64,000 nucleotides of DNA from contig NC_087250.1 of the NCBI RefSeq assembly GCF_037042905.1, positions 8,248,001 through 8,312,000 of the forward strand, given 5' to 3'. Positions 1 to 56,845 of the stretch are shown in pieces (positions within the stretch are counted from its first letter, which is position 1; every line of letters starts with the position of its first letter). This DNA is from Lytechinus pictus (taxonomy: Eukaryota). A model generated the notes under the pieces. That model was not told the origin of the DNA and searched no databases. It worked only from the letters and a program-made list of their open reading frames with translations. The position numbers and the translations under genes are program-made.

Positions 1-478
1 AATCAGAGTGCAGTATTCTTGTTTTCAAGCTGCTTTATGTACTTGGCAAATGAAAAGTGTGATCTTGACCCGATTAAACCAATTCTTATTTTGAAACCTA
101 TATCATTTCAAAGCATACATATTCAGCTTTATCATGATATAAAAATCATTTGGGCTCAAACAAAAATAAAGTGTGAAAATAGCAGCTTTTGTCAGGTGAA
201 AATATTTATTTTGTAGCATATTTTAGATCAAAATGTTCACCTATATTACAAAATCTTTGAATAAATCCAAACACATGACCTGAAAGAATGATTCTTCTTC
301 TTTACAATGGTACCAAATTCATGAAATTCGATGCACAATTAGAGCAGCAATGACCGAATGAAAAGAGGTGTTTTGGTCCGCATCAAGCTAATTAAATATG
401 CAAAACATCTCAAGTCATGAATATCACTTGGATGAAAGAAGCCACTTTCTTGGGACCTGCAGTCTGACTGATGTCCAA

Positions 479-670
479 GCCTTACCACATTGATCACATA
501 CATAGGGCTTTTCACCTGTATGGATTTGTTGATGTGTTATGAGAGTAGATACATGACTAAATGTCTTGCCACATTGATCACAAACACAGGTTTTCTCACA
601 CACAAAGCCTGTATGGAATTGTTTGTGTCTTCTCAATGCACTTTTATCACTTAATGCCCTACCACATTGA
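479..670 (-). pseudogene. Out-of-frame remnant fingers after the gene A stop (~2.3 fingers), cut mid-finger by unrelated sequence at ~478
   Basis: ORF 424..774 reads [66 protein letters not shown], then non-finger sequence. It matches fingers 19-21 of gene B, including the HTGFVCEKT linker. Confidence 0.8.
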
Positions 671-2766
671 TCACACACAGGGCTTCTCACCTGTATGGAT
701 TCGTTTATGTGCTTTGAGACTAGATTCATGTCGAAATGCCTTACCACACTGATCACAAACATAGGGCTTCTCACCTGTATGGATCTGTTTGTGTCTTCTC
801 AACGCACTTCTATCACTTAATGCCTTACCACACAGATCACACACAAAGGGCTTCTCACCTGTATGAGTTCGTTGATGGCTTTTGAGGCCGTTTTCTTGCC
901 TAAATGCCTTACCACATAGATCACATACATAAGGTTTCTCACCTGTATGAATTCGTTTATGAATTCTGAGATGAATTCCTTGGCTAAATGCCTTACCACA
1001 TTGATCACATACATAGGGCTTTTCACCTGTATGGACTTGTTGATGTGTTATGAGAGTAGATACACGACTAAATGTCTTGCCACATTGATCACACACATAG
1101 GGCTTCTCACCTGTATGGGTTCGTATATGGCTTGTGAGACGAGTTTTACTGATAAATGCCTTTCCACATTGATCACATACATAGGGCTTCTCACCTGTAT
1201 GGATTTCTTTATGTGCTTTGAGACTAGATTCATGTCGAAATGCCTTACCACACTGATCACAAACATAGGGCTTCTCACCTGTATGGATCTGTTTGTGTCT
1301 TCTCAACGCACTTCTATCACTTAATGCCTTACCACATAGATCACACACAAAGGGCTTCTCACCTGTATGAGTTCGTTGATGGCTTTTGAGGCCGTTTTCT
1401 TGCCTAAATGCCTTACCACATTGATCACATACATAGGGTTTCTCACCTGTGTGAATTCGTTTATGGATCCTGAGATTGGATTTTTCAAAAAACGCCTTAC
1501 CACATTGATCACATACATAGGGCTTTTCACCTGTATGGATTTGTTTATGTGTTTTGAGAGTAGATACACGACTAAATGTCTTGCCACATTGATCACAAAC
1601 ACAGGGTTTCTCACCTGTATGGATATTTTTGTGTCTTCTCAATGCATTTCTATCTCTTAAGACTTTACCACACAGATTACACACAAAGCCTGTATGGAAT
1701 TGTTTATGTGTTTCAAGATTAGATTCATGTTTAAATCGCTTACCACATTGATCACAAACATAGGGCTTTTCACCTGTATGGATCTGTTTGTGTCTTCTCA
1801 ACGCACTTCTATCGCTTAATGCCTTACCACACTGATCACACACAAAGGGCTTCTCACCTGTGTGAGTTCGATTATGGCTTTTGAGGCCATTTCTTTGCCT
1901 AAATGCCTTACCACATAAATTACATACATAGGGCTTCTCACCTGTATGGATTCGTTTATGTTCTGTGACATGGGATTTTACATTAAATGCCTTACCACAT
2001 ACATCACATACATATGGCTTCTCAGCTGTATGAATTCGTTTATGATTTCTGAGACGAATTTCGTGACTAAATGCTTTACCACATTGATCACATACATAGG
2101 GCTTTTCACTTGTATGCATTTGTTTATGTGTTATGAGAGTAGATACATAGCGAAATGCCTCACCACATTGATCACAAACAAAGGGTTTCTCACCTGTATG
2201 GATCTGTTGGTGTCTTCTCAACGCACTTCTATCGCTTAATGCCTTACCACACTGATCACACTCATAGGGCTTCTCACCAGTATGGACTCGTTTATGGCTT
2301 TTGAGGCCATTTTCTTGTCGAAATGCCTTACCACATAGATCACATACATAGGGTTTCTCACCTGTATGGATTCGTTTGTGTTCTGTGACATGGGATTTTA
2401 CATTAAATGCCTTTCCACATACATCACATACATAGGGCTTCTCACCTGTATGAATTCGTATATGTGTTGTGAGACTATAAGATTGACGAAATGCCTTACC
2501 ACACTGATCACAAACATAACGTCTCATTTCAAGTATATTTTCCTTGTTTCGTATTTTAAAAATTCTCTTTTCACCATGTGTAAAATCATTAGTTTTGCAA
2601 ATGGATTTTTGTATTTCTCCTTCGACAAATTGTAGAATGCTTTCCTTTGACGCATACGACGGCAAGACAACACCATTGAGCCCATGTTTGTACTTGAGAT
2701 GCCTTGCTAAGATGAGAGGAATAGCATAGACTGATCCACAGTACTCACATCTGTACAGTCCAGAAT
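671..2766 (-). CDS. Gene A terminal exon: isolated C2H2 finger ([24 protein letters not shown]), 55-aa spacer, then 22 tandem C2H2 fingers with HTGEKP linkers
   Basis: ORF 671..2788. Acceptor TCTTTTCTTGATAG|AT ends at 2767 and accepts the phase-1 G of the upstream exon (G+AT=Asp). Ends at TGA created by an apparent 2-nt deletion (CCC TGT GTG TGA). Confidence 0.92.
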
Positions 2767-3388: not shown

Positions 3389-4049
3389 TTAACTATTCGA
3401 ATAATTCTCTTAGGTTGACCTTTGCACGCATTGTGGTGCCCGCATTGATGCGTGCCAATGCGGGAAATGTTATGACATGACTTCCCTGTATTAGTGCACG
3501 CATTGTCCCGACACGTTCACGACATGTTTCCGCAAAAGACGATACATATTCTTAACTATTCAAATAATTCTCTTAGGTTGGCCTTTGCACGCATTGTGGT
3601 GCCCGCATTGATGCGTGCCAGTATGGGAAATGTTATGGCATGACTTCCCTTTATTAGTGCACGCATTGTCCCGACACATTCACGACATGTTTCCGCGTTG
3701 CTTGCGCGTTATTCATGCAATGTTCATGCACTGTCCCCACGTGCTTTCAGCAAATTTCCCCAACACCCTTATTCTGTGATGTAGTTTGCCAAAATTTCAA
3801 TATTCCTACATTCTGGTGTTGACGCCCTCTACGTTCATTGATAAGGACTTCTTACACTGATCTTGTGGTCTGCACAAACAATTTTTCGCATATCATTTGT
3901 GAACTATTCTTAACCTATGCGCAAAGTATGAGTAACCGTCGTGAGCTTGTCATGAAATGCATGCCATTACAATGGGGTGTGCCTACAATCTTTTGCACCA
4001 CAAATTTCTATTTCATGAACTATGAACTGGTCTATTTGTCACAAGATGG

Positions 4050-10583: not shown

Positions 10584-11118
10584 CCTTTTCATACATGGAT
10601 TGGAATTGGGTTGGAGTCTTGCTGCCTCCTGAAGCTTCTTCCGCCTTCTGATCACCTGATGATATTGAATCGGTTTGTGTCTGGGTAACTTCATCATAGT
10701 TCTTCCATCCCAGATCATTTATTTTCCCTTCCGCACTGTGATTAGCCTCACATATTTCTGTATTTTGTTCATATGACGGGGAGATGAGATCACCTGACTT
10801 GATCCTTTGATCACCTGCTGATATTGGATTGGTTTGTGCCTGAGTAACTTCATCATAGCTCTTCCATCCCAGATCATTGATTTTCCCTTCCGCATAGTGA
10901 TTAGCCTCGCATATTTCTGCCTTCTGATCACATGACAGAGAGATAGGATCACCTGACTTGGTACTTTGGTCACCTAATAATATTGGATTGGTTTGTGTCT
11001 GAGTAATTTCATCATAGTTCTTCCATTCCAGACCAGTAATTTTCCCTTCTGCATCATGATTAGCCTCACATAGCAGATTGCCATCATCATCATACTCGGC
11101 CTCTACTTTTATAGTGAA
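10584..11118 (-). CDS. Gene A internal exon (178 codons+1) starting FTIKVEAEYDDDGNLL, then ~2.7 copies of a 53-aa acidic/Ser-Thr repeat
   Basis: Acceptor TTTTTTCACATTTAG, donor AAGG|GTAAGC. Open in phase 0 to phase 1. Repeat period 159 nt (CEANHxAEGKINDLGWKxYDEVTQ...). The paralogue exon is open, with only in-frame indels. Confidence 0.8.
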
Positions 11119-16785: not shown

Positions 16786-16859
16786 TGTATTCAAATTCTC
16801 TTTGTGTAACTCATTCTTCTCTGTATGACATGGATTGGGATTATGAACATCAGAAGATC
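16786..16859 (-). CDS. Gene A 74-nt exon (G)SSDVHNPNPCHTEKNELHKENLNT
   Basis: Acceptor TCTTCTTTTCTAG, donor ACA|GTAAGT. Converts phase 1 to phase 0 exactly as the model needs. Conserved and open in copy B. Confidence 0.78.
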
Positions 16860-18905: not shown

Positions 18906-19001
18906 CTCTTAACTCTGTCCCCTTATCCTCACTTTCTTCTAAGATCTCTTTCTGTAATCCCTGCTGACGCTGCATGAACATTGGTGGGTTGACCTGTACC
19001 C
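18906..19001 (-). CDS. Gene A exon 2: aKRAB continuation (G)VQVNPPMFMQRQQGLQKEILEESEDKGTELR
   Basis: Acceptor TATACACAG, donor AGAG|GTTTGT, 96 nt, phase 1-1. PxFM motif as in the PRDM9 (RPAFM) and SSX (LPPFM) KRAB tail. Confidence 0.82.
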
Positions 19002-20031: not shown

Positions 20032-20167
20032 CAACTTGTATCATCATCTCATAGTTTTCCTTGACATTCTGGATACAAATCCTCTCGTAATCGCTGATAT
20101 CTGCCCATTCATTGGCTGTGAAGTAAACCTGGACATCTGAATATTCATCTATCTTTGGCTGAGGCAT
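20032..20167 (-). CDS. Gene A first coding exon: ancestral (PRDM9/SSX-type) KRAB-A box MPQPKIDEYSDVQVYFTANEWADISDYERICIQNVKENYEMMIQV(G)
   Basis: D..VYFT..EW....D.E....NV..NY.....G matches the KRAB-A/PRDM9 pattern. GCCACCATG start with an upstream in-frame TAA. Acceptor at 20215. Phase-1 donor G|GTAAGT in the terminal Gly, as in KRAB-A exons. Confidence 0.88.
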
Positions 20168-25096: not shown

Positions 25097-25141
25097 TGGT
25101 GGCAGCGGTGGGAACCCACGCCATCGAAATGACTGGTGCCT
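25097..25141 (+). other. Primer-binding site extended into an antisense tRNA-Leu 3' half
   Basis: TGGTGGCAGCGGTGGGA|ACCCACGCCATCGAAATGACTGGTGCCT is the reverse complement of CCA, acceptor, T arm (5 nt missing), long variable arm and anticodon 3' strand of a Leu(AAG/TAG)-type tRNA. Confidence 0.8.
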
Positions 25142-25526
25142 CAAAAGGTAAACTTCGATACATTTTGAATGACGTAATATACTAGATTTGTCAGTTGAAT
25201 TGTGAAAAGTTCAATTTAGGTGATATTTAATTAGAAAAAAAGTATTGAGATAAAAATGTCATTTTTAGGGAAATTTGAAAAAGTTTGCTTTCCCCACAAA
25301 AAATACTTTGCTTGGGTAATAATTTGACAATGCTACATAATTATTGTATCTAAAAAAATGTATATTTAGTCTCTTTATAAAAAAAAAGGTTTTCAAAGTT
25401 TAGGTCAAATTGATTATGACTTCGACAAATTGATGTAATTTGTTTTTCTCTGATAATAGAATTTGAAAGATACTCTTTTATGATGAAACAGTTATTTTAA
25501 CATGTTGATTAATTGATCGTCACGTC

Positions 25527-26064
25527 CCCGGGGGGGGGGGGGGGGGGGGGCACTCGACCAAAAAAGTGGTAGGGGTGTGCCTCGGGCGAGACAAAAAAAA
25601 ACCGGGGGCCTTGGAGCGGGCTTATTGTAAAAAGGAGGGTCCTCGGAACGGGCTTCGGAACTACAAATGTTTGTGAAAACAGGGGTCCTTGGAACGGGTC
25701 GCCTGCGTGCAAGTGCGTATGCATCCCCATGGAACGTGCATGCAGCTATATAGCCCGGCGGCACAACTGTCGGGCGCGCTAGCGCAGAGGCGATGGTCGC
25801 ACAGCGAGCTGCGGCCGCTTTTCACCAAAATTGCAACCAGAACGGCGTAACGGAAAATATGCGAAGCCCTGGAGCGGATTTTTTTTCTTCTTTTTTCTCG
25901 AGAAGAAATAAATGTTATGCTTTGGAGCGGCTTTCTTGGTTCTTTTCTCAATAAGACAAAAATGCTATGCCTCTGAACGGAAATTTGAGTGTAAAAATGG
26001 GGGTCCCCTCCGCGGCACATACCCACTATGCATTATATACTGAGTGCCCCCCCCCCCCCCCGGG
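25527..26064. mobile_element. MITE with poly-G/poly-C TIRs and 8-bp TSD
   Basis: GTCACGTC|CCCGGG(G)nCACTC...GAGTG(C)nCGGG|GTCACGTC. Confidence 0.8.
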
Positions 26065-26545
26065 GTCACGTCTTTGATCAAGGTATATAAAACTTTCATT
26101 GCAGAATTGATTTGTAAAGAAAGAAAAATACATATATTTTTTTTAAAACTTCAAACCGTTATATTTTGAAGTCCCCATTATTGATATGAAATGTAAACTT
26201 GATATGTACTTTATTAATTCAGATATCATATCATGAATATCATAGTTGAAAACATACATTTTTATATTGTCAAATATTTTTTTTCCCTAATAGATGAAGA
26301 TTACTGCAATTTTAAATGAGGACATTTTATTTGTAAGAGGAGATATTGTTTGTAGAGCTGTAGTGTGAACAGGGTTTTATAGATGTGTTCTTCATTATTC
26401 TTGATCATCCTCAAAATTCCATCTTTTCTTCCATCACCTTCTTTACATTCCTTTCAACATGCCAGATTCACTCTTCCATCCCTTTCTTTTGTTCATGCTC
26501 ACTCATACTTGACTCTTGCTAAGTTCTTATTCTCTGATTGGTTCT

Positions 26546-29500
26546 TAGAGGATTATGTGTTATGCACGCTGCATCATTGGTGTAAACGTTTGTTCTTTTA
26601 TGTGCACAGGGACCGTGTTCATTGTTAGCTGCCATAGCACCTGAAGCTTCATAGCCAAGAGCAACAAATAGACAAGGTTCTTATTTATGAACACGGTCAA
26701 CTTTCAAACATGCCTACCGTTAACTGCCCAATTCCCGGCTGTGACTACGCCACACCAGACCGTGATGCTGCCATCGTAGCTGCCCTTCTAACTGCCCACA
26801 GTACCATTCACACCTCTGGACAAGCCGCCAAGGTCGAGAAGGTCAAGAGACCAACGATTGCTGCTGCTGGCACCAGCGAGGAATGGGCGTACTTCAAGTC
26901 GCGGTGGTCCGACTACGTTGATGCCACTAAGATCACTGGGAAAGACAAGGTTGTACAGCTTCTTGAGTGTTGTGACGAGCCCCTACGGAAGGACCTCACG
27001 CGAGCTGCTGGTGGCAGCCTCACCAACAAAACTGAGGATGAGGTGCTGACAGCCATCAAGAAGCTTGCCGTACGAGAGGAGAACACCATGGTTGCCCGCG
27101 TGACACTTCACAACATGCGTCAAGACAGGGACGAGACAGTTGGCAGCTTCGGAGCCTGTCTACGGGGACAAGCAGATATTTGCAAATTCATCATAGCTTG
27201 CCCTGCTTGTAATGCTGATGTCAATTACACTGACGCAATCATGCGGGATGTGCTTACCAGGGAGATTGCCGATTCTGAAATCCAGCTCGATCTTTTAGGG
27301 AACAAAAACCAAGACATGGGCCTGGAAGAGGTTTTCCAGTTCATTGAAGCAAAAGAGGCTGGTAAACGCTCTGCCTCCTCTCTCCTCGACTCACACACGG
27401 AAACGGCCAGCAGCTCCTCCTATAGGAAAGCTAAGCAGGCGCACCCAGGGCCCAAGGACAAACAGGAACTGTGTGCCTACTGTGGCAAGAAAGGACATGG
27501 ACGGAGTGCCCCAGCTCGTGTCCGCCAGACGCAGTGCCTGGCCTATGGACAGAAATGTGGTCACTGCAACAAGTTCCACCACGTGGAGGACGTCTGCCGC
27601 ACCAAGGTCAAGCAGAAAACGTCACAGTCGACCTCCTCGGGTGAGCAGGAGGGGGCAATCTTCAATACCCTTTGTACTATCCGTGACCTAGGACAATCAC
27701 ATGGCCTCCCCATTGATCACCATGTATATGATGACATTTCCCAAGCATGGCACAGGAAGAGATCAACTCCTCAGCCATACCTCAATGTGACTGTAAGGGC
27801 TGTTCCGGAAGACTATCGAGCCCTCGGGTTTAACCTTTCATCCCCCTCACAAACCAGCGCCATCCCAGCCATGGCGGACACTGGGTGTCAGAGCTGCCTC
27901 GCCGGGTTAAAGGTCCTCCGCCGCCTTGGGTTACGTCAGCAAGACCTCATTCCTGTCACCATGGCGATGCACACCGCAACTGAGGGCGGCATTACGATCC
28001 TCGGAGCCGTCCCCCTACGCTTCTCTGGCCAAGATCCTCTTGGCCACATGGTCGAGTCACGGCAACTCACTTACGTCACCGACAGTTCTGATAAGCTCTT
28101 CCTCAGCAAAGAGGTCTGCATTGCCTTGGGGATCATCTCAAAAAGCTTCCCTAATCTTGGCATGACACAAGGGGCACACCAATCAGACAGAGCAGCCACC
28201 CTCAAGGAGGTTCCCAAGCGGGCCGCCTGTCCCTGCCCTCGGCGTCAACTGCCCCCACCGCCTCCTACAAAACTGCCATTTCCTGCCACTGACGCAAACC
28301 GTGAGAAGCTACAACAGTATCTCCTAGATTACTACCAGTCCAGCACATTCAATACCTGTGAGCATCAGCCCTTGCCACTCATGGATAGTCCCCCGATTAA
28401 ATTGATGGTGGACCCAGATGCGGAACCCATCGCTCATCACACACCTGTGCCAGTCCCACTCCATTGGCGTGATGCCGTCAAGGCTGATTTGGAGCATGAT
28501 GTGCAGTTGGGCGTGCTGGAACCTGTACCCATTGGGGAGCCTGTTACATGGTGCCACAGGATGGTGGTGTGTGCTAAAAAGGATGGTAAACCGCGTCGAA
28601 CAGTCGACTTTCAGGCCCTCAACGTCCATGCTACACGTGAAACGCACCATACACCATCACCCTTCATTCAGGCCCGCTCTGTCCCCCACGGGAAGAAGAA
28701 GACGGTATAAGATGCATGGAATGGTTATCACAGCGTCCCCATATGCCCGGAGGACCGACACCTCACCACTTTCATTACCCCATGGGGCAGGTACCGTTAC
28801 AAGACAGCCCCTCAGGGCTACATTGCCTCCGGAGATGGATACACCAGGCGGTATGATGAAATCGTCTCGGGCATCCAAAATAAGACGAAATGCGTCGACG
28901 ACGTCCTCCTGTGGGCTGACACAATGGAAGACAGTTTCTTCCAGGCTGTTGAATGGCTGGATATCTGCGGCCGCAACGGGATTACCCTCAATCCTGAGAA
29001 GTTCACATTCGGTGCGGATATCGTAGAATTTGCTGGCTTTGAGATCACTCCTGATGGCGTTCGCCCATGTGAGAAGTACTTACAAGCCATCCTTGATTTC
29101 CCACCACCCACTGGCATCACAGACGTGCGCTCCTGGTTTGGCCTTGTCAATCAAGTATCCTACGCCTTCAGTATGGCTGAGAAGATGCTCCCATTCCGTG
29201 ACCTCTTGAAGCCCAACACACCCTTCATATGGACCCCAGCCCTCCAGACAGCTTTCGACGAGTCCAAAGCCACCATTGCCAGTGAGATTGAAGAAGGCGT
29301 GCGCATTTTTGATCCAGACAAACCCACCTGCCTCGCGACGGACTGGTCCAAGAATGGCATCGGATTCTGGCTCCTACAAAAACACTGCAGCTGCAAAAAC
29401 ACTGAACCCTTCTGCTGCAATACGGGCTGGAAGATCACCCTTGTTGGGAGCAGATTCACCCATGCTGCTGAGGCACGCTATGCTCCAGTGGAAGGCGAAG

Positions 29501-31799
29501 CCCTAGCCGTAGCTGATGCCCTGGACAAGGCAAGATACTTTGTCTTGGGATGTGAGGACCTCACCATAGCTGTCGATCACAAGCCCCTTCTCAGGATCTT
29601 TGCCGATCGCGACCTACAAGACATCCCAAATCCCCGCCTGAGGAATTTGAAGGAAAAGACTCTGCGATACAGGTTCCGTATGGTCCACATTCCAGGTGTC
29701 AGACACCGTGCCACAGATTGTCTCTCGAGACACCCGACCGGTGAGCCTGCCATGTTCCTGCACTCCGTACCACTCATGGCAGGCCTCCGAACCATGGCCC
29801 CACAAGAGGACACTGTCGGGATTTGCACGCTTTCCTCAGCTATGTGTGCCCTGGAATCCCTCCACTTGAAGTCAGTCACATGGGACCGGGTCCGTACTGC
29901 CACAACTAGTGACGACAACATGCAAGCACTACTCAATGCTGTTGAAGCTGGCATGCCAGAGTTTCGTCATGAGCTCCCCTCACCTCTCTGCGAATATTTC
30001 CCATTCCGTGACGACCTTTATACAAGTGATGGTGTCATCCTCTACAAGGACCGCATTGTCATACCACCATCCCTCCAGGAGGAAGTATTGGCTCATCTGC
30101 ATGCTGCGCACCAAGGAGTAACTTCTATGACTGCCAGAGCGGAGTCCTCTGTCTTTTGGCCTGGCATCACTCCAGCCATTACAGCTCTCCGTGCCCGGTG
30201 CAACCAATGCAACAGGGTCGCACCCTCCAACCCACGTGCACCCCCGACCCCGTTGCTGTCTCCGGCCTACCCTTTCCAATGCATCTGTGCCGATTTATTT
30301 CACTACAAGGGCTGCAACTATCTGGTCATCGTGGACTGCTACTCCAATTGGCCTATCGTTGAGAGGTCCAATCAAGGGGCAACTGGACTCATTTCTTGCC
30401 TACGGAGGACATTCGTCACCTTCGGGATCCCGGATGAACTAGCATCGGATGGTGGCCCTGAATTTACAGCGGCTGCCACACGCCATTTCCTCACGGACTG
30501 GGGCATTCATCACAGACTTTCATCCGTTGCTTACCCACATAGCAACTGTCGTGCTGAGGTGGCTGTCAACTCTGTGAAACGTCTCATCATGTCCAACACC
30601 AGCCCTGCAGGTGCCCTCGACACTGATACCTTCCAACGGGCTATGCTGCAGTACCGAAACACTCCTGACAGGAACACCAAGCTCTCCCAGGCTATGTGTG
30701 TCTTTGGCCATCCGATCCAAGACTTCATCCCCATTGCCCCAGGCAAATATCTACCACACAACACATGGCGCGAGACCCTAGCAGCTCGGGAAGAAGCACT
30801 TCGTACCCATCACATGAGGGACGCAGAACGTTGGTCCGAGCATACTAAACGGCTCCTGCCCCTTACCGTCGGAGACCACGTCCGCCTCCAGAATCAGACA
30901 GGACCACACCCACTCACGTGGGACAGGACTGTGATCGAAGTTCGACAGTATGACCAATACGTCATCCGAGTTGATGGTTCTGGGAGAGTCACCCTACGCA
31001 ACCGGAAATTTCTTCGGAAATATGTGCCTGTGCAACAGCACCCACCTCCACTGACTATGGAGGAAGACATCTCTCCACATCATCATCAGGCACCCGCACC
31101 CCTCTCTGGCCGTGTGGGACAGGTGCTACTTTCTCTGCAACATACCGGCACTGCAGACGCCCCATGCTGCCCCCGTGAGCCTGCTTCTGCTGCTTCTTCA
31201 CCTCCGCAGGCAGCCAAGGATGCCCCTCGTGGAACGCATCCCCCCTCTTCCGTGGAGGACTCCCTCACAACGCCGCCTGAGACACCACCAGCAGCCCCCT
31301 GCTTGGGTACGGTTCCTGCACTGATCGCTGCTTCTCCGCCTGGCACTCCTCTTACAGCACCCCGGCGCTCTACCCGTCGCACCAGACAGCCCGTCAGGCA
31401 CTCGGACTATTCCATGTGATTTCAGCCAGTTCGACTGACATTAGTGTTGCGTTCAAGAGTTTCCTGTTATTTGCACTGGTGTTGACTTTGCGCATTGTTT
31501 TCGCGTTCCTTAGTGTTAGTTATGTTATTCCCACGGTTCTTGATTTTATACATGGAGCTTTATGGACTCATTTCCACGTTGCATCATCTTTGTTAGTTTG
31601 ACTTCTTCAGTCTTCGTTCCCGTATTGCCATCTTCTCTACAATACACACCAAAGACTTGGGGGGAGATAAAGGATTATGTGTTATGCACGCTGCATCATT
31701 GGTGTAAACGTTTGTTCTTTTATGTGCACAGGGACCGTGTTCATTGTTAGCTGCCATAGCACCTGAAGCTTCATAGCCCAGAGCAACAAATCTTATTTA
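26546..31799 (+). mobile_element. Near-intact Ty3/Gypsy LTR retrotransposon ('LTR-III'). LTRs 26546-26687 and 31668-31799
   Basis: GTTCT 5-bp TSD. The LTRs differ by 2 substitutions and a 10-nt indel. PPT GGGGGGAGA at 31659-31667. Domain order gag-PR-RT-RH-IN. Confidence 0.93.
26710..31419 (+). pseudogene. Single-frame gag-pol with one premature TAA (28708-28710) in RT
   Basis: Two Zn-knuckle-like motifs and protease ADTG. RT continues in frame after the stop (*DAWNGYH...TTFITPWG...KCVDD). RNase H ATDWS/EGEALA. Integrase HAAH..C..C and CAD..SDGG..AE. Confidence 0.92.
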
Positions 31800-32112
31800 G
31801 TTCTCTCCCTCTGACTTAGGCTCATTAATATTCAATAGTAACTATTCATTTGCCATGTATATTCATATATTTCTTTTATTTGCTATCTTTGATATTTGAA
31901 TATTCATTATTTACCTTTGTTATATATAAATCATGCATGTTAATATTTTATGCCAAATAAACCCCTGAGGTTTAAAGTAATTCAGCACAGGGCAGTTCAT
32001 AACAGGCAATCATTGAGTGAGGTTGTCTCTTTTCTCTGTAAGTTTTTCGAACCACGCCCTTTACCGCTCTGGCCACTCTACAGTAATAACAATTTTATTA
32101 CACCAACTTTAG

Positions 32113-33320: not shown

Positions 33321-36300
33321 TTAGGACAAACCTCATTTACTGTGCGCGGCCATCGTAAGGGGCGATAAGACATCATCCCTCGCAGAGGGCGACATTTCAC
33401 AATACACATCAAACAATAACATATTGGCGCAACCACATTTCTCTGTCTTTCCATTGGAATTAAGTCAACCTCTAACCAATTGGCTTGGGGGACAATTACT
33501 TTCTAAACAACAAAATCAATTCACTCTTTTAAAAGGTAAAACAAAACTATATCTGTAGTTATCTCGTCAAACCATGGATTCCGGAAAACACACCGGTAGA
33601 CCTGCAAGGAAGGTATCACATATTAATCAAAGTAAGTTAAAAGATCAGTATCAATAAAAAGTATTGGCCATTACCATGGTTACTACATAAAACAAATTAA
33701 AAGGCATAATGTACCTTTAACCATTATATAACATGTACAACAAGCTTGGATAAATAAATAACCAACATATTATCTACCCTTCTATCTGTAGGCAAAACAC
33801 ACTCCAAATAGTCAATCAACATGACCTAATATATATCAAGCCAACCAAATTAAAAGGGGGAAAACTCTAATAGCCGTGAAGACATCACTATGCATGCTAT
33901 AAAAGTTATAACCCAAATTCATGGAGCAACATCAATATTGTCAACACACACTGTAAAACAAACAGTTCAAACATGACTAAGAATAAAAACTCAAAAAGGC
34001 ATTAGTAAAAAGAACACATAAACACAATCATTGTGGACACTGCAGATGCCATAAAACTATAAAGGGCATAGCAATACACAATGCATTCATCGTGTACACT
34101 TATGAGCCCATGCACCAATAGATACATACATGTGCAAATGTAAAATGCAACTTACATTTTTTGTGTGTTTCATGCGAAATATAAATGCAAATGAATAACA
34201 TCACTGCCTTGCATACTGAAGAAAAACAATCCACAATGAATGCATTGTGTATTGCTATGCCCTTTTAGTTTTATGGCATTTAAGTTTTATGGCCCCCATG
34301 CAACGGGCCCCATGCTGGGGCCCGTTGCAGAAAGAGTTGCAATCAAACGCAGTTCTAAAAATCATGCGCAACTTTATTTTCAACCAATCAACAGCGCGCA
34401 TTTTGGACTTGCCATTGATTTTTTCACTTGCGTTTAAACGCAACTCTTTCTGCAACGGGCCCCTGGGGCGTCCACAGTGATTGTGTTTATGGATGTGTAC
34501 TATCAAAGTAAGCACATAAACAATCTAATGATATATTTTTCAACTGTAAGAACGTGTAAGGATATGGAGGCCCACAAGTCCTGCTAAGCAAAAAACAGTC
34601 TTTGCACATACTAGTAATAGCAAACACTAAACAAAATGTAAAATAGGTGAAGGGTCACATAAAGCAAATACAAACCGAGATAGGTAAAGAAGAAAAACAT
34701 AAATGGGTACAAATTGTTCGAGTAGTAAAAAAAAATAGGTGATGGTACAATTGGCACTATCCAGCCACCACAGCTCAGCTATGAAATGTGCAATGTCTAA
34801 AGGCAAACCAACAAAATAAGAGCAGCCTACTGGACTACCATAAACTAAGGAAAGTTAAAGATGTATTTATGAAGTGCCAAAAGATTAGTAACCTAAAATA
34901 GCTGATAAAAAGTGGCATTCAGGCTCACACTATACATCCTAATACTAATATCTCAACATTTAATAAAAACCAGTATGACATGAATACATGTAATTTAAAA
35001 ACTAAAAATAATTATAGATATCGGATTACCAACTCATCACCGAGATGGAAATTACCAAAATAAACATGTAATCAATAACTTTTAGTCATAAATAATTTAT
35101 ATGCAAAAGGGAACAATCTGACACCTGAAAAACCGTATGGTACCCAATATAACCAAAGGGATACAATTTATTTAGCAATAATCAAAACAATGATAATATG
35201 GTACACTGGTACATTATACAAATAACAGTAAAGGCTGAAAATATACTAAATAAAAAACATGCACAAATCACATCACAAAAAAGGGGCAGAGAAAATAGAC
35301 AAGAGCACAACAGGAAAAGAAGAAAAAAAGAAGGCTGGAGTATATACTGTCCATAACAGGATGAAGAGCAAAGAATACCAGTTCACATACTGTCATGAAT
35401 GAGTCTACTGTATCGAAGTCCATAGGCGTCACTCACAGAACGTGATGGAACATTAAAACAAAGTCTTTGCCCATCGACGTTCCTGGAAGGGTCTCTTGAA
35501 GAAGGGTCATATTAGTCGGCAATCTAGAAAGGGGTCCTGCGTGATTTAAAGTCAATATCCGGAGGACGACCTGGGGGAAGTCCAATGTGTTCTCCAACGG
35601 GTTGACATGGCCGACTCTGTGAAGTCATGAGGACAGAAGTGAAGGGCACAACAGTGTCTGGCCACCTGAACTGAGGATCCAACATCTTGCAGCACTGGGG
35701 ATCACTGGTAGGACCTGAAGCATCACCGGGGACATCTCCAGGAGAATCCGGGGGTCGACCAGGAAGGTCATCAATCCGTAGGATACAAGGATGAGGATCG
35801 AGCCACATGATGATGCTCGGCGACGGTGATGTTGTGCATGAGAGGAACACAAACCTTGACCCCAGGAGTCGAAAGAGGAAGGGCATTCAGGTAGAACATA
35901 TTGTAACCATGCAATGCGGGATCCAATGACCGACTACGATCTGGCTGAGATACAGAAACAATATCAGATGAGTCATGGACTGCACAGTTACTATGGTGTA
36001 AAGATTCATGATCAGGAGCCGATCGATGGCTGTTGAGGAGTTATAAGCTCACTGATGGGCCCTGCGGCTATAGGATGTCTGTCTGAGTCAACAGTAGGTT
36101 CCATGTCTCCATGCAAGGGCTTCACTCATAGATGACTGGTCTGCAACAGCAGGATGGGCTCGTTCACAATTACGGGAGTCCGGAGTTGAAACAAGGTAAG
36201 ATTGGTCAACGCCATCGGAAGCCGAATCAGGTAAGCCTGCAGCAAGCGCATCGGATATATAGCAGGATAACCAAAGGACCGTACAGATACGATGGTCCAT

Positions 36301-38839
36301 CACCGAATGATACTACACGCTTAGCCGGTCGGATGAATACATCAGGTAATTCCATGAATGGAATTCCAGCCTGAACAGCAACATCCAAACCACTAATCCT
36401 TCGAAGAGAAACTGTCTGTTGTCCCTTGTGAATATGAGACAGGTCTCACCTACAATCGCAAGAGGGGAGGAATTGTCAGTAGGTTGAACTGATCGGGAAG
36501 TGGCGGTTATCACAGCCCCAAGATCTTGAACCGTAGAATGTAAAATCAAATTCTCCGTAGACCCACTGACAATGCTCACACGGACACACTGATCACCATG
36601 GAACAGTTCCACAAAGGGAGTCACGGGGGCCTGATTATGCACAATGAATGAACTAGCCACAGACCTATGTGGTGTACTGTGAGGACCTTGGACCTCGATC
36701 ATCTGACTCTGATGATTGTCCATTGCACCAGTGAGGGTCTCCCTGAATCGCCGACTCTGACTTCGAGTCATCAAAGCAACCAAGATGTAACTTAGGATCT
36801 ACAGAGGAACGATCCACAGCATATGATGAACAGTCAACATCTTTAGAAGGAATACAGCCTGGAACATGATCATAACCAGGGTCATGATCGACAATCAACT
36901 CATCGCAGGTATCACTACAAGTCTGGAAATTGGTGTAGCCGAGAATGCTAGCGGCCTTGCGAGCTCGAGTAATCATGCGCCTTTCATGGTCGGGCAAGAA
37001 TGGACAGTCACCAATATGGTGGCGGGAACAATGCTGACTAGCATAAAGACAAAATGGGCACACAACTTGGTTGGTTAACGTTAGGCAAATGATGAACTAA
37101 GGCGGGCCTAGGACTAGCCTGAATCGATGTAGGTGTCATGCTATAACTATCGGTAGCCTGGATATGTTCAGGACTCGACGTAAACCGATAGCAAGGTACA
37201 ACACACCGGGCGTCACACTTGTGGTCATCATTCATGTCATAATAGGCAGATCTATCATACATCTCTTTACTAGACCTACTACCGATATCATCGTCTCTCG
37301 ACTCATGATCATCGGACAAGGCTCGATGATCGTTAAGCTTATGGCTAGTTAAGTGTACGTGTAAAACTCTAATCTGATTCTGAGGATATGACTGGCAATG
37401 TAGATCTAGGCACGACTTTCATCTGGAATCATCCAACTTATAGCTTTCTTAATCACAATGAAAACTGTCAGAATCTTCTGCTTCATCCTCATCAACATAA
37501 TCATCGTCTGGCTCATTCTCAACCTCATAATCATTCTTCTCATCATACCCATGATTATCATCTTCTGGATCATTCTCCACTTCATAATCATAGTCCGGTT
37601 CATTCTCATTATCAAATTACGACCACTGTGTCTGTGACTGACATCAACAAATTCAACATTCTCATTATCATCCACACAATGATTCCTTGATCTATTGACT
37701 GTGTCTGTGTATAAATTTCTCGATTTACTAAGTGCATGTGTAATCACTTGAATTACTGATTGTATTGCTATAAATGTCATAACTCTCAGATAGGAAAGTA
37801 CAAGAACTAACTTGATTGGGGCGGCCTCGCTCTCGGGCCTGGGGGCGAGGTCTTGACCTCGGTGGGGAACAGCCATTCAAAGGACTGTATGTAGGACTAC
37901 GGCACTGAGGTAGTAAAAAATTGTTATCACGACACATTTTTGCCGACCAACTGGTTGCTCGGATAGCATGAATCCCATCGGTGTGCGGAGCAGGCAAGGT
38001 TCAAATCCCAGCTGTCACCAAGACATTAAGAAATAAAGGAGATGGAAAACCAGTTACAGTAATAACAATTTTATTACACCAACGTTAGGGCAAGCCTCAT
38101 TATCTTTGCGCGGCCATCGTCGTAAGGGCCGATAAGACATCATCCCTCGCAGAGGGCGACATTTCACAAGACACATCAAATTCAATAACATATTGGCGCA
38201 ATATTTTTTTCCTACTTCATAATTAGGTTTTTCATTCAACTTTTTATTCAATCATGTTAACAATATTTCCACATGTTCAGGGATAAATCAAACATAATCT
38301 AACATTATAATTAGGGGGGGGGAATGTAAATTTGAATAAAATAAAATACCAAACATAGTATTTCAATAAGCCCAATGCTTTTCAAATCTGCATTTTGTAA
38401 ACAGTACCATTATTTGCATACTTACAACCTCACTTACATACATATATCACTCCGCTGTTGTGAACATAAGCAAATCATGAAATGCAATACTTATGTACCC
38501 ATAAGTTCACCAGAATCCTGTGAAAATAAGCAAATCATGAAAAGCAATACTTCTGTAACCATAAGTTCACCATAATTCTGTGAAAATAAGCAACAATGTA
38601 ATACTTCTGTACCACACAACTTTATCATAATCCTAAAGTAAGCAAACAATTTAGATTAAATGCTTGCATTGCACACATGCCCTCCATATTACCCTTCGGT
38701 GAAAATAAGTAAGAATCAGTAAAACGCTAAACTTTGTCATTTTTATCAAATTTTGATATTTTTCCATTACTTTTCACTATTTACCATCATTTTCAAGAAA
38801 AAATCTAAACAATAAGTCAATGTCTTTTAAAAAGCACTA

Positions 38840-40188: not shown

Positions 40189-42473
40189 TCACATATATGA
40201 GGGCTTCTCACCTGTATGGGTTCGTTTATGTAGCCTGAGATGATGTCCAAGACTAAATGCCTTCCCACATTCCTCACACACAAAAGGCTTCTCACCAGTA
40301 TGAGTTCGTTTATGGTTTCTGAGGCCATTTCTGTGCCTAAATGCCTTACTACATAGATTACATACATAGGGCTTCTCACCTGTATGGGTTCGTTTATGGT
40401 TTGTGAGGATATTTTCTTGCCGAAATGCCTTACCACAAAAATTACATACATAGGGTTTCTCACCTGTATGAATTCGTTTATGAATTCTGAGATGAATTCC
40501 TTGGCTAAATGCCTTACCACATTGATCACATACATAGGGCTTTTCACCTGTATGGATTTGTTGATGTGTTATGAGATTAGATACATTACTAAATGTCTTG
40601 CCACATTGATCACAAACACAGGTTTTCTCACACACAAAGCCTGTATGGGATTGTTTGTGTCTTCTCAATGCACTTCTATCGCTTAATGCCTTACCACACA
40701 GATCACACACAAAGGGCTTCTCACCTGTATGGGTTCGTATATGGTTTGTCAGGATATTTTCTTGCCGAAATGCCTTACCACAAAAATCACATACATATGG
40801 TTTCTCACCTGTATGGATTCGTTTATGGTTTGTGAGATGAGTTTTTCTACTAAATGCCTTTCCACATTGATCGCATACATAGGGCTTCTCACCTGTATGG
40901 ATTCGTGTATGTGTTTTGAGACTAGACTCGTGTCGAAATGCCTTACCACATTGATCACAAACACAGGGCTTCTCAACTGTATGGATCTGTTTGTGTTTTC
41001 TCAACGCACTTCTATCGCTTAATGCCTTACCACACTGATCACACACAAAGGGCTTCTCACCTGTATGGGTTCGTATATGGTTTGTGAGGATATTTTCTTG
41101 CCGAAATGCCTTACCACAAAAATCACATTCATAGGGTTTCTCACCTGTATGGATTCGTTTATGGTTTGTGAGATGAGTTTTTCTATTAAATGCCTTTCCA
41201 CAATGATCACATACATAGGGCTTCTCACCTGTATGGATTTGTGTATGTGTTTTGAGACTAGACTCGTGTCGAAATGCCTTACCACATTGATCACAAACAC
41301 AGGGCTTCTCAACTGTATGGATCTGTTTGTGTCTTCTCAACGCACTTCTATCGCTTAATGCCTTACCACACTGATCACATACAAAGGGCTTCTCACCTGT
41401 ATGGGTTCGTATATGGTTTGTGAGGATATTTTCTTGCCGAAATGCCTTACCACAAAAATTACATTCATAGGGTTTCTCACCTGTATGGATTCGTTTATGG
41501 TTTGTGAGATGAGTTTTTCTATTAAATGCCTTTCCACATTGATCACATACATAGGGCTTCTCACCTGTATGGATTCGTGTATGTGTTTTGAGACTAGACT
41601 CGTGTCGAAATGCCTTACCACATTGATCACAAACATAGGGCTTCTCAACTGTATGGATACGTTTGTGTCTCGTGACATGGGATTTTACATTAAATGCCTT
41701 ACCACATACATCGCATACATAGGGCTTCTCACCTGTATGAATTCGTTTATGATTTCTGAGACGAATTTCGTGACTAAATGCTTTACCACATTGATCACAT
41801 ACATAGGGCTTTTCACTTGTATGGACTTGTTTATGTGTTATGAGAGTAGATACATATCGAAAGGCTTCCCCACATTGATCACAAACACAGGGCTTCTCAC
41901 CTGTATGGATCCGTTTGTGTCTTTTCAATGCACCTCTATCACTTAATGCCTTACCACACTGATCACACTCATAGGGCTTCTCACCAGTATGGACTCGTTT
42001 ATGGCTTTTGAGGACATTTTCTTGCCTAAATGCCTTACCACAAAGATTACAAACATAGGGCTTCTCACCTGTATGGATACGTTTGTGTCTTGTGAGATGG
42101 GATTTTATATTAAATGCCTTACCACATACATCACAAACATAGGGCTTTTCACCTGTATGGATTCGTTTATGTGTTGTGAGACTATAAGATTGACGAAATG
42201 CCTTACCACACTGATCACAAACATAACGTCTCATTTCGAGTATATTTTCCTTGTTTCGTATTTTAAAAATTCTCTTTTCACCATGTGTAAAATCATTAGT
42301 TTTGCAAATGGATTTTTGTATTTCTCCTTCGACAAATTGTAGAATGCTTTCCTTTGACGCATATGATGGCAAGACAACACCATTGAGCCCATGTTTGTAC
42401 TTGAGATGCCTTGCTAAGATGAGAGGAATAGCATAGACTGATCCACAGTACTCACATCTGTACAGTCCAGAAT
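40189..42473 (-). CDS. Gene B terminal exon: isolated C2H2 finger, spacer and 24 tandem C2H2 fingers
   Basis: ORF 40189..42495. Same acceptor as gene A (AG at 42474-42475). The first 83 exon codons are protein-identical to A. A 4-finger (336-nt) block is repeated three times. Confidence 0.93.
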
Positions 42474-42503
42474 CTATCAAGAAAAGACGATACATATTCT
42501 TAA

Positions 42504-43911
42504 AGTTGAATTAAGAAGACGATTCCAAATATTGAGATATTTACATTAATAGCAACCTTACAACCCCCCAAACACTAATAGGTGATTCGACCCCCCATTT
42601 TCTTTTTTCAAAATAGTGAATTTGAGTTCGCTCCTGCAATGCCTACCGAGACGGGTGTTCTTTGAGTGTGACGTCACCGGGGGGTATTCGGTCCCGTTTT
42701 GTGTACTGTGCACGTACTCCTTCATATGGAATAACTGCAGATGAAGTTGTATCTGCGAGCCATAGAACTTGCAAAGAGGAAATGATTAAAATATTTGTGG
42801 CCGTACTATTATTCCAAATATGTGAATTCCCTCAGAATGATACCATAGACCCTAAAGGAATAATTTCAAGGTGAATAATATGAAATTTGATCGAGATCTT
42901 CTCACCAGTCGATAACGTAGCAGACGTGTTATTATGACATATTTATCCGCGTGTGACGCGGCTCTTGCAAAAAAACACAGTTGGTTGCGGAATTGCTTTG
43001 TGCCGACCGGCCGCCCGCTCCGGCGCAGCTAGCTGTCGAGCGACCGTACCGTTCTTGTTGTCTTCAACCATAGAGATGTATACTAATTACTATATATATC
43101 TTTCTGTCTTCAACTCACTTGCGAATTGCGTTTGTATGTGTGACGGTGACCCCTAGCGTAATTAAATATAGAAAACAACTCAGAAGGCCGAGAAAGAATA
43201 CTATACGTTTGGTTCAAGATTGTTCTGTGGAATGAGCTATGAGTGGAAATGATCCAGAGGATATAAAAGTGGAGTCAAAGACAAAAGAAAAGAAGAAAAA
43301 ACGCCAGGGGATCGCTGCACGGCCATGAACTAAGTCGACATACCAGACCATAACAGTACACTCAATGCCTAGCTGGGTGTTGTGTGTACTAGTATTATGC
43401 GTTCAGCGCGCGCTGAGCTCGCCGCCGGAATTACTTTCCAGCTACTCACTTGATTGAACATCGTGATAAAATAAATGAGAAATAATGAAAATATCATTCA
43501 ATAACTCACTGTTTGCTATCTTACATCATGATTGAAGAGTTCATGGTGGTTATTCATACTGTTTTTTATACAGGGAAAGTAAAGATTTGTACATATCAGT
43601 CATATTTGTTTGATTTGAGTTGCTTTGAAAAAAAAATGTAAAATATCTTTCTCTCTCTGCATAGCATTTCTGTATGACATTCAGGCACCTCTTATACTAA
43701 ATTCCCCCCGGTGACGTCACACTCCGAGTGACTTTTCTGTACACTCGTCTCTCAGGCTCTGACAGGTGGCTAATTTCATAGACTTTCAAAGCAAAATATC
43801 GAGAAGGCAGAGGATTTTTGTGACATGCTATCTGTTTGAACAACTTATATATACTATATATTGTATGTAGAACCTATATTTATGGAAACTCACCCCCTTC
43901 TTAATTCAACT
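42504..43911. mobile_element. Kolobok-like element Y, copy B (no Tc1, different TTAA site)
   Basis: TTAA|AGTTGAATTAAGAAG...CTTCTTAATTCAACT|TTAA. Confidence 0.75.
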
Positions 43912-46900
43912 TTAAAGGGGAATGAAAACTTTGGAATAGTAGGCTTTTGTCGAAACAGAAAAATTGAAGAAACAGATCAACAAAAGTTTAAGAAAAATCG
44001 GACAAATAATGAGAAAGTTATGAGCATTAGAATATTGCAATCACTAATGCTATGGAGATCCTCCCATTGGCAATGCGACATGGATATGTGATGTCACATG
44101 TGACCAACTTTCCCTTTGATAAACTATAAAATACCACCAAAATGTCTTGTTTTGCTTTTTTTATGGTGATAAAACTCTTTATCCATGATGTATTCTTTAA
44201 AAATCTCTACTACATGCCCTCCGATAGAAAGAACTCATGATCTACTGATCTATGAGATAAAAGAGGCAATTTAAGTGAAATATATACTCGAGTAATGTGG
44301 AGAGTTGTTCACAAGTGACATCACACATCTTTGTCGCATTGCCAGTGTGAGGATCTCCATAGCATTAGTGATCGCAATATTTATTCAAATGCTCATAACC
44401 TTCTCATTATTTGTCTGATTTTTCTCAAACTTTCATTAACTGTTTCTTTGATTTTTCTGTTTTCACACAAGCTATCTTGTTCTACATTGTAAAGGTGTCA
44501 TTCTCCTTTAACTATTCGAATAATTCTCTTAGGTTGACCTTTGCACGCATTGTGGTGCCCGCATTGATGCGTGCCAATGCGGGAAATGTTATGACATGAC
44601 TTCCCTGTATTAGTGCACGCATTGTCCCGACACGTTCACGACATGTTTCCGCAAAAGACGATACATATTCTTAACTATTCAAATAATTCTCTTAGGTTGA
44701 CCTTTGCACGCATTGTGGTGCCCGCATTGATGCGTGCCAGTGTGGGAAATGTTATGGCATGACTTCCCTTTATTAGTGCACGCATTGTCCCGACACATTC
44801 ACGACATGTTTCCGCGTTGCTTGCGCGTAATTCATGCAATGTTCATGCACTGTCCCCACGTGCTTTCAGCAAATTTCCCCAACACCCTTATTGTGTGATG
44901 TAGTTTGCCAAAATTTCAATATTCCTACATTCTGGTGTTGACGCCCTCTACATTCATTGATAAGGACTTCTTACACTGATCTTGTGGTCTGCACAAACAA
45001 TTTTTTGCATATCATTTGTGAACTATTCTTAACCTATGCGCAAAGTATGAGTGCCCGTAGTGAGCTTGTCATGAAATGCATGCCATTACAATGGGGTGTG
45101 CCTACAATCTTTTGCACCACAAATTTCTCTTTCATGAACTATGAACTGGTCTATTTGTCACAAGTTGGAGACTTGTTTCCAATTAACTATGCATATCGTA
45201 AGCTGCTAGATCGCAAGCAAAGGTACTCTATGGTTGAGCGCGAATGCTTAGCTTCGGCATGGGTAGTTAAGGAGCGCAAGCAAAGGTACCCCATGGTTGA
45301 GCGCGAATGCTTAGCTTCGGCATGGGCAGTTAAGAAGTTTTCCTACTACTTGTGCAGAAAGAAATTCAGATACCAAACTGTGTCCTGTTTCATCAGGCTC
45401 GTTATAATAACAAAATTCCGATAACAGTTTAAAGCTACTGAAATCCTGCGATTTGATTGGTTGATTCAAAATTTGTCATAGAAACAAGTCTTAATGAAAT
45501 GGGACCCAGATCATCATCCTCTGTCTTATCTACCAAAACCACAACTAAAGAATCCAAGAGTTCTGTGTTTGGTGCTCAGATTGCAAGCATATTCACAGCA
45601 TTCAGGTAATAAAGCCCAGCCATGGCGCAATTTCCTTCAGCAAGAAATTCATCCACATTGTGCTGCACTCAACCCAGGTGAGGTGAACGGGAACCCGGCG
45701 GGATTAATTCCTTAGTAATTCCTTAGAATGCAAGAGCGCTGCAAGGCAGCTCGAGTTAAAGCCGAGGTAATAATAATAACAACGCGCCTCGGAATAGAAT
45801 ATTTCTAGATAGATGGCGCTATATAAATGCCTATTATTATCATCATTATAAAGGGAACAGAGAATGTACATGTAGGTGCAGATAATTTAAGTAGATGTCC
45901 TTAATTTTTTTTATTTATGGCGTTTGTCTAAAGGAAGGGGAAGTTTGTAACAAGCAATTTTTTATTTTGACACTCAGGAAAAATCCTAAATTTTTATTTT
46001 TATAAAAGTGTTTAATGAGAAAACATGATGGTTTAATTTTGGGTGCTTAGTATAATCATGGACCTACTCCAACTGGACATTCAACGAATCCCCTCCTTTG
46101 GGCCTAAGACCGTCGCCGCTAATCCATTTATAAACAGAGCGCTGGCAGCTGACGCCCATCAAGCCGATCGTAAACAAGCTGTCACTGAAGGACAGCAGCA
46201 ATCACTTGTGCCTCATATAAATAGACCTTTTGCCCTCTACATGTAGATTACCTTTGACCCCATCACTCTCACAGGCTCACATGTGGTACATGTATTACCC
46301 AAAGATCAAAGGGTAAACAGAATTGATGCAGAAATAAAGAAATTAAAGCAGTTTGAACAAAAACTTGACCTTTTGACCCTAGATGACCTTTGACACCATC
46401 ATCCTCAGCAAAACACTTGCGGTATTACCCAAGGATCATACGTAACAAGTGTGAACATAATTGATGCAGAAATATAGAAATGAGAGCAATACGAAAGTAA
46501 ACTTGTAATTTTGACCCCTAGATGACCCTTGACCCATCATACTCAACAACACACTCATGCGGTATTACCCAAGGATCCTTTGAACCAAATGTGATCAAAA
46601 TTGATGCAGAAATAAAGAAACGTGTGAAACGTTGAACAAAAAACTTTAAATAAGAATGAACATGACCTCATATCATTTGACGTTTTGACCCCTAGATGAC
46701 CTTGGACCCCATCATTCTCATGGGGTCAAATGTGTATTACCCAAGGAGCATATGTCCAACTATCAACATAACTGATTCACAAATAAATAAGAGCAAGTTG
46801 AACAAAAACTTCCACAGTTTGGAACAGACTAACAAACCTACAAACAGACCAATGGACTAACAGGAAAACTTGTTCTCTGCCAAACTTCACATAACTTTTT

Positions 46901-48257: not shown

Positions 48258-48948
48258 CCTTTTCATACATGGATTGGAATTGGGTTGGGGTCTTGCTGCC
48301 TCCTGAAGCTTCTTCTGCCTTCTGATCACCTGATGATATTGGATCGGTTTGTGTCTGGGTAACTTCATCATAGTTCTTCCATCCCAGATCATTTATTTTC
48401 CCTTCCGCACTGTGATTAGCATCACATATTTCTGTATTTTGTTCACATGACAGAGAGATGAGATCACCTGACTTGATCCTTTGATCACCTGCTGATATTG
48501 GATTGGTTTGTGCCTGAGTAACTTCATCATAGTTATTCCATCCCAGATCATTGATTTTCCCTTCTGCATAGTGATTAGCCTCGCATATTTCTGCCTTCTG
48601 ATCACATGACAGAGAGATAGGATCACCTGACTTGGTACTTTGGTCACCTAATATTGGATTGGTTTGTGTCTGAGTAACTTCATCATCGTTCTTCCATTCC
48701 AGATCATTGAATTTCCCTTCCGCATTGTGATTAGCCTCACATATTTCTGCCTTCCGATTACATGATGGAGAGATGCGATCACCTGACTTGGTCCTTTGAT
48801 CACCTGATAATATTAGATTGGTTTGTGTCTGGGTAATTTCATCATAGTTCTTCCATTCCAGACCAGTAATTTTCCCTTCTGCATCATGATTAGCCTCACC
48901 TAGCAGATTGCCATCATCATCATACTCGGCCTCTACTTTTATAGTGAA
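48258..48948 (-). CDS. Gene B 53-aa-repeat exon (~3.7 repeats)
   Basis: Same splice sites as 10584-11118. Length 691 nt = 535+159-3. Translated by hand with no stop. Confidence 0.8.
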
Positions 48949-54054: not shown

Positions 54055-54128
54055 TGTATTGAAATTCTCTTTGTGTAACTCATTCTTCTCTGTATGACAT
54101 GGAGTGGGATTATGAACATCAGAAGATC
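54055..54128 (-). CDS. Gene B 74-nt exon
   Basis: Paralogue of 16786-16859; AG/GTAAGT sites intact and frame open. Confidence 0.78.
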
Positions 54129-55578: not shown

Positions 55579-55674
55579 CTCTCAACTCTGTCCCCTTATC
55601 CTCACTTTCTTCTGAGATCTCTTTCTGTAATCCCTGTTGACGCTGCATGAACATTGGTGGGTTGACCTGTACCC
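55579..55674 (-). CDS. Gene B exon 2 (aKRAB continuation with PPMFM)
   Basis: 96 nt, phase 1-1, AG and GTTTGT sites retained. Confidence 0.82.
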
Positions 55675-56709: not shown

Positions 56710-56845
56710 CAACTTGTATCATCATCTCATAGTTTTCCTTGACATTCTGGATACAAATCTTCTCGTAATCGCTGATATCTGCCCATTCATTGTCTGTGAA
56801 GTAAACCTGGACATCTGAATATTCATCTAACTTTGGCTGAGCCAT
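56710..56845 (-). CDS. Gene B first coding exon: ancestral KRAB-A box MAQPKLDEYSDVQVYFTDNEWADISDYEKICIQNVKENYEMMIQV(G)
   Basis: GCCACCATGG start, G|GTAAGT donor, 4 amino-acid differences from gene A. Confidence 0.88.

Follow-up and report, generated by a model that had tools for sequence, protein, structure and literature searches.

Rearranged finger arrays in two tandem copies of a predicted SET-less aKRAB zinc finger gene from Lytechinus pictus

Known array systems and the predicted gene

Finger duplication, conversion and change at contact sites are established for PRDM9 and KZFPs (literature including PMC2779102 and PMC5120217). Tetrapod KZFP clusters diverge through in-phase deletion and duplication of fingers (PMC3971581, PMC4592553), and in cyprinids the FiNZ-ZNF genes are a tandem-finger family peculiar to that lineage, positive selection being confined to some of its clades (PMC10547256). 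Genes that join an ancestral KRAB (aKRAB) to fingers but carry neither SSXRD nor SET were found only in coelacanth in a 2022 survey (PMC8835667). The titles and abstracts of a mostly open-access literature hold no description of such genes in sea urchins; Table S1 of the same survey may list echinoid sequences.

The 64-kb stretch of L. pictus DNA analysed here (the window) carries tandem copies, A and B, of one predicted five-exon gene, both on the minus strand and related as a direct duplication at an offset of 37-41 kb (Table 1). The five-exon models have GT-AG junctions and predicted open frames of 1093 codons in B and 978 in A; the terminal ORF runs over 40189-42510 (-) with 24 array fingers in B, and over 671-2857 (-) with 22 in A. 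The parts follow each other as ancestral KRAB, acidic linker, PRDM9-type leading finger and C2H2 array, the leading finger and the tandem array all within one terminal exon.

Table 1. Predicted exons and array segments of the two gene copies in the window
Feature	Position	Strand	Basis or remark
Gene B exon 1, ancestral KRAB-A	56710..56845	-	Pfam KRAB 23.2 bits (cut-off 20.4); KRAB tree
Gene B exon 2, KRAB-B-like	55579..55674	-	Alternative in-frame donor would end exon at 55606; homologue P0002 favours longer form
Gene B exon 3 (predicted)	54055..54128	-	GT-AG, frame-consistent, matches P0002
Gene B exon 4, acidic linker with 159-nt repeats	48258..48948	-	Homologous to linker of Lytechinus PRDM9-like proteins
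Gene B terminal exon: PRDM9-type leading finger, spacer, 24 C2H2 fingers (42225-40201)	40189..42473	-	ORF; Pfam zf-C2H2
B fingers 1-7	41638..42225	-	Collinear with A fingers 1-7 (2518-1931); 40 differences/588 nt
B triplicated 336-nt block, fingers 8-11, 12-15, 16-19	40651..41672	-	Offset-336 run over 40651-41336 with 20 mismatches
Gene A exon 1, ancestral KRAB-A	20032..20167	-	Motif scan, copy comparison, KRAB tree
Gene A exon 2	18906..19001	-	Gene model
Gene A exon 3	16786..16859	-	Gene model, A/B alignment
Gene A exon 4	10584..11118	-	Gene model, A/B alignment
Gene A terminal exon: leading finger and 22 fingers, closed by 2-nt frameshift	671..2766	-	ORF; A/B alignment
A out-of-frame tail: two more fingers and start of a third, like B19-21, then unrelated sequence	473..680	-	A/B alignment

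The best relatives of the gene are L. pictus and L. variegatus proteins. Its aKRAB, above the Pfam cut-off, is 60-65% identical to the KRAB of Lytechinus PRDM9-like proteins, its leading finger is 87% identical over 31 aa to that of the L. variegatus PRDM9-like P0013, and KRAB, one linker segment and leading finger are common to the window gene and the PRDM9-like proteins of the genus. The likeness to PRDM9/Meisetz (echinoid PRDM9-like L. variegatus XP_041466345 and XP_041466715, L. pictus XP_063956537) takes in the aKRAB, the acidic linker segment and a leading finger that opens the terminal exon, and extends to a single-exon array of 84-nt units with finger duplication and conversion (PMC2779102). 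Unlike PRDM9, however, the window gene is without SSXRD, knuckle and PR/SET: residues 243-262 of P0013 (SSXRD) have no tblastn match in the window, the PR/SET motif scan was negative and the best window match to P0013 residues 267-430 has an E of 5.6, and tblastn with three PRDM9-like proteins gave no match below E 1 in the window to their SSXRD, knuckle or SET residues. In the predicted model exon 4 joins the terminal exon in frame, with no SET exon between. The array differs as well, being heterogeneous and of 22-24 fingers where PRDM9 has 5-10, with a contact share (defined below) of 0.27 and a dN/dS of at most 2, and it is not the homogenised array of complete PRDM9 with diversity concentrated at positions -1, 3 and 6.

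The gene resembles tetrapod KZFP clusters in pairing KRAB with a long C2H2 array without SET and in its tandem duplication, yet its KRAB is ancestral and groups with echinoid SET-less proteins, not with modern KRAB-A by descent. In a KRAB tree of 60 columns and 30 rows, including four modern KRAB rows and one coelacanth row, 12 SET-less rows, A and B among them, come together (96/98) and stand separate from modern KRAB, three of the 12 being short proteins whose missing SET may reflect incomplete gene models. The tie of this group to echinoderm PRDM9 is weakly supported (67/86), and the link to echinoderm PRDM9 is made mainly because the linker and leading finger are common. Membership in an echinoid SET-less aKRAB-ZF family follows from a KRAB within the SET-less Lytechinus clade together with the common linker and leading finger. 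Coelacanth aKRAB-ZNF genes differ in being usually single-exon (PMC8835667), against five exons here, the window gene keeps echinoid PRDM9 linker sequence, and the lone coelacanth row groups apart. From FiNZ-ZNF the gene differs in an unrelated N-terminal domain, and in FiNZ-ZNF transposon repression has been tested (PMC10547256). In sum, the array behaves as those of KZFPs do and the gene is of PRDM9 descent, and it belongs fully to neither group.

No close orthologue or allele stood among the best 120 of 7883 matches to the array (top identity 68%), and a search for exon 4 homologues gave no match among 745 candidates, even though relatives exist. The linker too varies in repeat number, since the 159-nt coding repeat of exon 4 (10644-11072, 48318-48899) has 2.7 copies in A and 3.7 in B. 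Three gene models of the same family (P0019, P0068 and P0016) carry an extra PHD finger or THAP domain, which may be real fusions or annotation errors.

Layout and divergence of the two arrays

It had been noted from the letters alone that B carries the block RHESS-NRKTH-RQENI-SDRSA three times and that A reuses RQENG-SDRSA-RHESS, and both repeats were recovered: HESS-RKTH-QENI-DRSA recurs in B8-11, B12-15 and B16-19 with a period of 336 nt (6/336 and 13/324 mismatches between copies), and A14-16 differ from A20-22 at 4/252 positions with a spacing of 504 nt. These repeats and the finger comparisons bear out the proposed block duplication and shuffling, and A and B, as putative recent paralogues, differ by fingers gained or lost. 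The block copies differ by 1.6-4%, about the A/B age. That the arrays cease to be collinear after finger 7 holds from finger 8 onwards, but collinearity partly returns at the 3' end, where A18-19 match B20-21 with 6 and 1 differences of 84, and where the A tail (667-473, after the 2-nt frameshift) matches B19-21 with 10 differences in 195, a shortened-linker scar being common to both. The frameshift itself (680-690) is a 2-nt loss and, because it falls within a short T/TG run, could be a consensus error instead of a real allele. Beyond the truncated array of A, window positions 1-478 match nothing else in the window and are perhaps an insertion.

As a set the fingers are heterogeneous, with a mean pairwise difference of 26% of nucleotides, and some classes are copy-specific: QENG..KS (A) versus QENI..TN (B), HESSLKA versus HESSLKT, and E versus R at the sixth position. 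Of the three helices that had been called unique to A, FEKSN alone is so, lying at least 14 nt from every other finger; ISKTR and KHESN are mostly derivatives, the former 7/72 nt from B9 and the latter 11-12 nt from the HESS class.

Against what background should the arrays be judged? Orthologous non-array blocks differ at 317/12566 sites (2.5%; block range 1.3-4.7%), one of the blocks kept including the 74-nt exon 3 and element Y being left out with its 6.2% divergence as its copies are non-orthologous. Fingers 1-7, at 40/588 (6.8%), exceed this background (Poisson p 5e-8), and the differences are spread as 3, 8, 6, 7, 7, 2 and 7 of 84 nt per finger. The first 83 codons of the terminal exon had been said to differ by three synonymous changes, and so they do (3/248 nt, all silent), although the flanks, at 1.3-4.7% per block, are more divergent than this pre-finger exon and not its equal.

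It is the kind of difference within the collinear fingers that is most telling. Over fingers 1-7 pS is 0.185, contact pN 0.106 and non-contact pN 0.026, so that silent sites carry the greatest excess. Of the 40 differences 22.5 are synonymous, and these, roughly 22 on 121.8 sites, are more than expected from the 2.5% background (p 3e-12) or from the orthologous block that has diverged most (p 2e-7). Since silent divergence is up sevenfold, selection on the protein cannot be its cause. CpG hypermutation was considered as a source of the silent excess and set aside, with only 5/40 differences being CpG transitions.

For 37 of the 40 differing sites in fingers 1-7, each of the two bases is also present at the corresponding position of other fingers, compared with 18.7 expected under random mutation and 30.4 under purifying filtering (p 0.008). 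Exact tracts are common to sibling fingers (B2/B7 nt 51-72, A2/A7 nt 21-55, A4/A9 nt 5-56), and the E-to-R change at position 6 falls within the 22-nt tract common to B2 and B7. Over the whole array there was no bias towards same-copy donors (19 vs 21 sites, p 0.87), and in the four-gamete distance test site incompatibility (48% of 105 pairs) showed no increase as sites lay further apart (p 0.77). Of the five codon changes at contact positions in fingers 1-7, three (B2, B3 and B4) have codons that no other finger carries; these are probably point mutations, about as many as the 2.5-2.8% background would lead one to expect (p 0.28). The A-QENG and B-QENI fingers are 11-13/72 nt apart; because this is more than flank age allows, we infer that both types predate the A/B split or that one came from another paralogue.

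Such distances could also be read as a duplication older than its flanks imply, in which A/B gene conversion homogenised the flanks while selection protected the arrays. The patchy flank divergence (1.3-4.7%) and the 15-18% between some finger classes of the two copies would fit, but within the arrays A6 and B6, and likewise A19 and B21, are identical over 72 nt, and the differences mostly match sibling fingers and are not independent mutations; we hold this to be very unlikely. Taken together, the silent excess and the states common to sibling fingers point instead to conversion and unequal exchange, not to adaptive helix substitution, and overall we think it probable that a SET-less aKRAB gene of PRDM9 descent was recently copied in tandem to give A and B, and that their arrays have outpaced the rest because their 84-nt units recombine with one another.

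How this would proceed can be sketched. Unequal exchange between 84-nt units would duplicate or delete blocks of three to six fingers, the block changes being in plain sight and their cause proposed, and short conversion tracts from sibling fingers would bring silent and coding differences into collinear fingers, a step that rests on the site statistics, with individual donors putative. Exchange would thereby reorder a stock of about eight older finger classes, and each new order should, by the established C2H2 recognition rules, alter the long DNA site of the protein. Purifying selection meanwhile keeps zinc ligands, core and reading frame, as a dN/dS of 0.04 over ligand and core codons shows, and in the long term change at contact residues would be tolerated or mildly favoured (dN/dS 1.3-2.0). 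The product is most likely a sequence-specific DNA-binding regulator with target turnover.

Might the array change be no more than unselected repeat instability in copies that are decaying or nearly neutral? Copy A has its frameshift and truncated tail, exons 1-3 differ between A and B by seven replacements and one silent change, exon 4 by eight and five, and the 120 matches listed include no near-identical protein. Yet B is open throughout its 1093 codons with GT-AG junctions, ligand and core codons are constrained as just noted, and the pre-finger exon shows no replacement at any of 193 sites (p 0.0045), which makes decay a rather improbable account. As to exons 1-3 (20167-16786 and 56845-54055), several of the replacements look B-derived when compared by eye with P0002.

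Selection on contact codons

The original prediction went further and saw helix substitution as a driver of the fast divergence, with diversifying selection on DNA-binding specificity as in PRDM9 and KZFPs. All the recognition-helix differences it listed for fingers 2-4 are present in the A/B alignment. As a driver, however, helix substitution is not supported: contact pN is below array pS (Fisher p 0.21), and more than half of the differences are silent, as given above.

A codon model put contact dN/dS at 1.33 (p 0.15) for one tree of 46 fingers and at 1.68 (p 0.008) when a different finger tree was used. With branch lengths refitted the estimate is 1.70-2.00 for B (p 0.033, 0.005) and a non-significant 1.55-1.58 for A (p about 0.10), where other helix positions reach 1.75-2.0. 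Position -1 taken by itself reaches 1.83 (uncorrected p 0.033). Conversion does not inflate these values, as in 42 diversity-matched neutral simulations with conversion and block turnover there were two false positives at an LRT of 3.84, none reached a dN/dS of 1.96 and four reached 1.53. A first set of 80 conversion simulations was replaced as too diverse (0.37 vs 0.26). The 16 closest finger pairs have one contact replacement on 156 sites (pN/pS 0.19); new blocks copy helices intact. We infer mild long-term diversifying selection on contact residues: the predicted selection is found, modestly, over the deeper finger history, chiefly in B, though the result varies with the tree and the newest copies show none of it.

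In a stronger form of the idea, A and B differ because their DNA-binding specificity is under strong diversifying selection, as in PRDM9 or in KZFPs that chase transposons. Contact sites in fingers 1-7 have a pN fourfold that of non-contact sites (7/66 vs 10.5/400, Fisher p 0.005), contact dN/dS is above 1 in B, position -1 reaches 1.83, and a putative L. pictus/L. variegatus orthologue pair has a contact excess, differing at 14/36 contact, 10/81 variable framework and 33/298 N-terminal residues (a protein-level count, without dS). The same count for A versus B is 5/28 contact against 6/63 (p 0.30). Against strong selection stand the contact pN below array pS, the contact changes, which counted as four independent events do not exceed background (p 0.12), and the single contact change on 156 sites in the 16 closest pairs. 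Moreover, a dN/dS of 3 was detected in 12/12 simulations with LRTs of 11-57, where the observed LRTs are 2-9, and values of 10-14 have been given for human PRDM9 (PMC2779102).

A further measure is the contact share, the fraction of amino-acid diversity found at positions -1, 3 and 6. It is 0.26-0.28 in the A and B arrays and 0.21-0.26 in six SET-less Lytechinus relatives, against 0.38-0.56 in six SET-bearing Lytechinus genes, 0.62 in rat and 0.83 in mouse PRDM9; muntjac PRDM9 has 0.32 and one S. purpuratus gene 0.28, and complete vertebrate PRDM9 spans 0.33-1.0 (Table 1 of PMC5519329). The contact share of A and B is that of ordinary finger arrays, not of PRDM9, and at 0.27-0.28 against the SET-bearing Lytechinus genes and mouse it too counts against strong selection, which we regard as doubtful. 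Of the parallels drawn with known systems, that with KZFP-type finger gain and loss survives; that with PRDM9 does not, given array homogeneity and contact share. The first reading of this DNA was thus right on shuffling and block duplication, and overstated helix substitution and PRDM9-like selection. One lesson is that paired dN counts at helices mislead where units convert each other.

Age of the copies, wider setting and neighbouring sequence

Since their 2.5% divergence equals the 2.9% heterozygosity reported for L. variegatus (PMC9557091), A and B could be haplotypes of one gene, misplaced in tandem by the assembly or captured through unequal crossing-over between homologues, so that the array difference would be allelic. 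The copies also differ in the presence and absence of transposons, as haplotypes might. The join between them, however, is free of gaps and of any N, and the substitutions that separate the B block copies keep the frame, which stays intact through 2285 nt; a collapsed or expanded repeat would look different. We consider a haplotype origin unlikely. A duplication arising by crossing-over between homologues would itself begin at allelic distance. Whether A and B are haplotypes or paralogues, their arrays were rebuilt over a period roughly comparable to that of variation within a species.

The mode of change, finger conversion with gain and loss of blocks, is already well known from PRDM9 and KZFPs; what is less familiar is the invertebrate setting, in which a SET-less aKRAB-finger gene is caught very soon after duplicating, over half of each array being rebuilt and the flanks 2.5% apart. 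The pair offers a tractable embryo model for the question of whether arrays turn over only with the PRDM9 hotspot mechanism or whenever a finger array is long. It is tempting to speculate that sea urchins run an independently evolved KZFP-like system, in which an offshoot of PRDM9 rebuilds 11-15 fingers within the coalescence time of two alleles, arrays are hypervariable from one individual to the next, tandem copies capture different alleles and selection on finger order tracks transposons, although we put this forward tentatively and would not bet on it. TRIM28 recruitment and transposon binding, known for KZFPs, carry over to the window gene by analogy only, and the same holds for its possible targeting of transposons.

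Several other features of the window deserve mention. Intron 4 has a 163-nt tandem duplication in both copies (3389-3696 and 44508-44815), the junction of which carries a short copy of the sequence adjoining the terminal-exon splice acceptor. A GC-richer stretch at 35500-37900 has several frames of 80-160 codons, of which 10 were scanned with no Pfam match above cut-off; none was obtained either in 16 ORFs from 35.5-37.7 kb and 49.5-52.6 kb. Upstream of copy A, a Gypsy-type LTR retroelement (24849-32082) has RT, RNase H and integrase, its LTR-like repeats being 87% alike with gaps. A TTAA-bounded element with terminal inverted repeats lies at 42500-43914 and at 4310-7690, on opposite sides of the same 1.5-kb block in B and A, a placement that suggests two separate insertions or a local hop. 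Nested within this element, in copy A only, is a Tc1/mariner element (5915-7659) with an open transposase frame of 364 codons.
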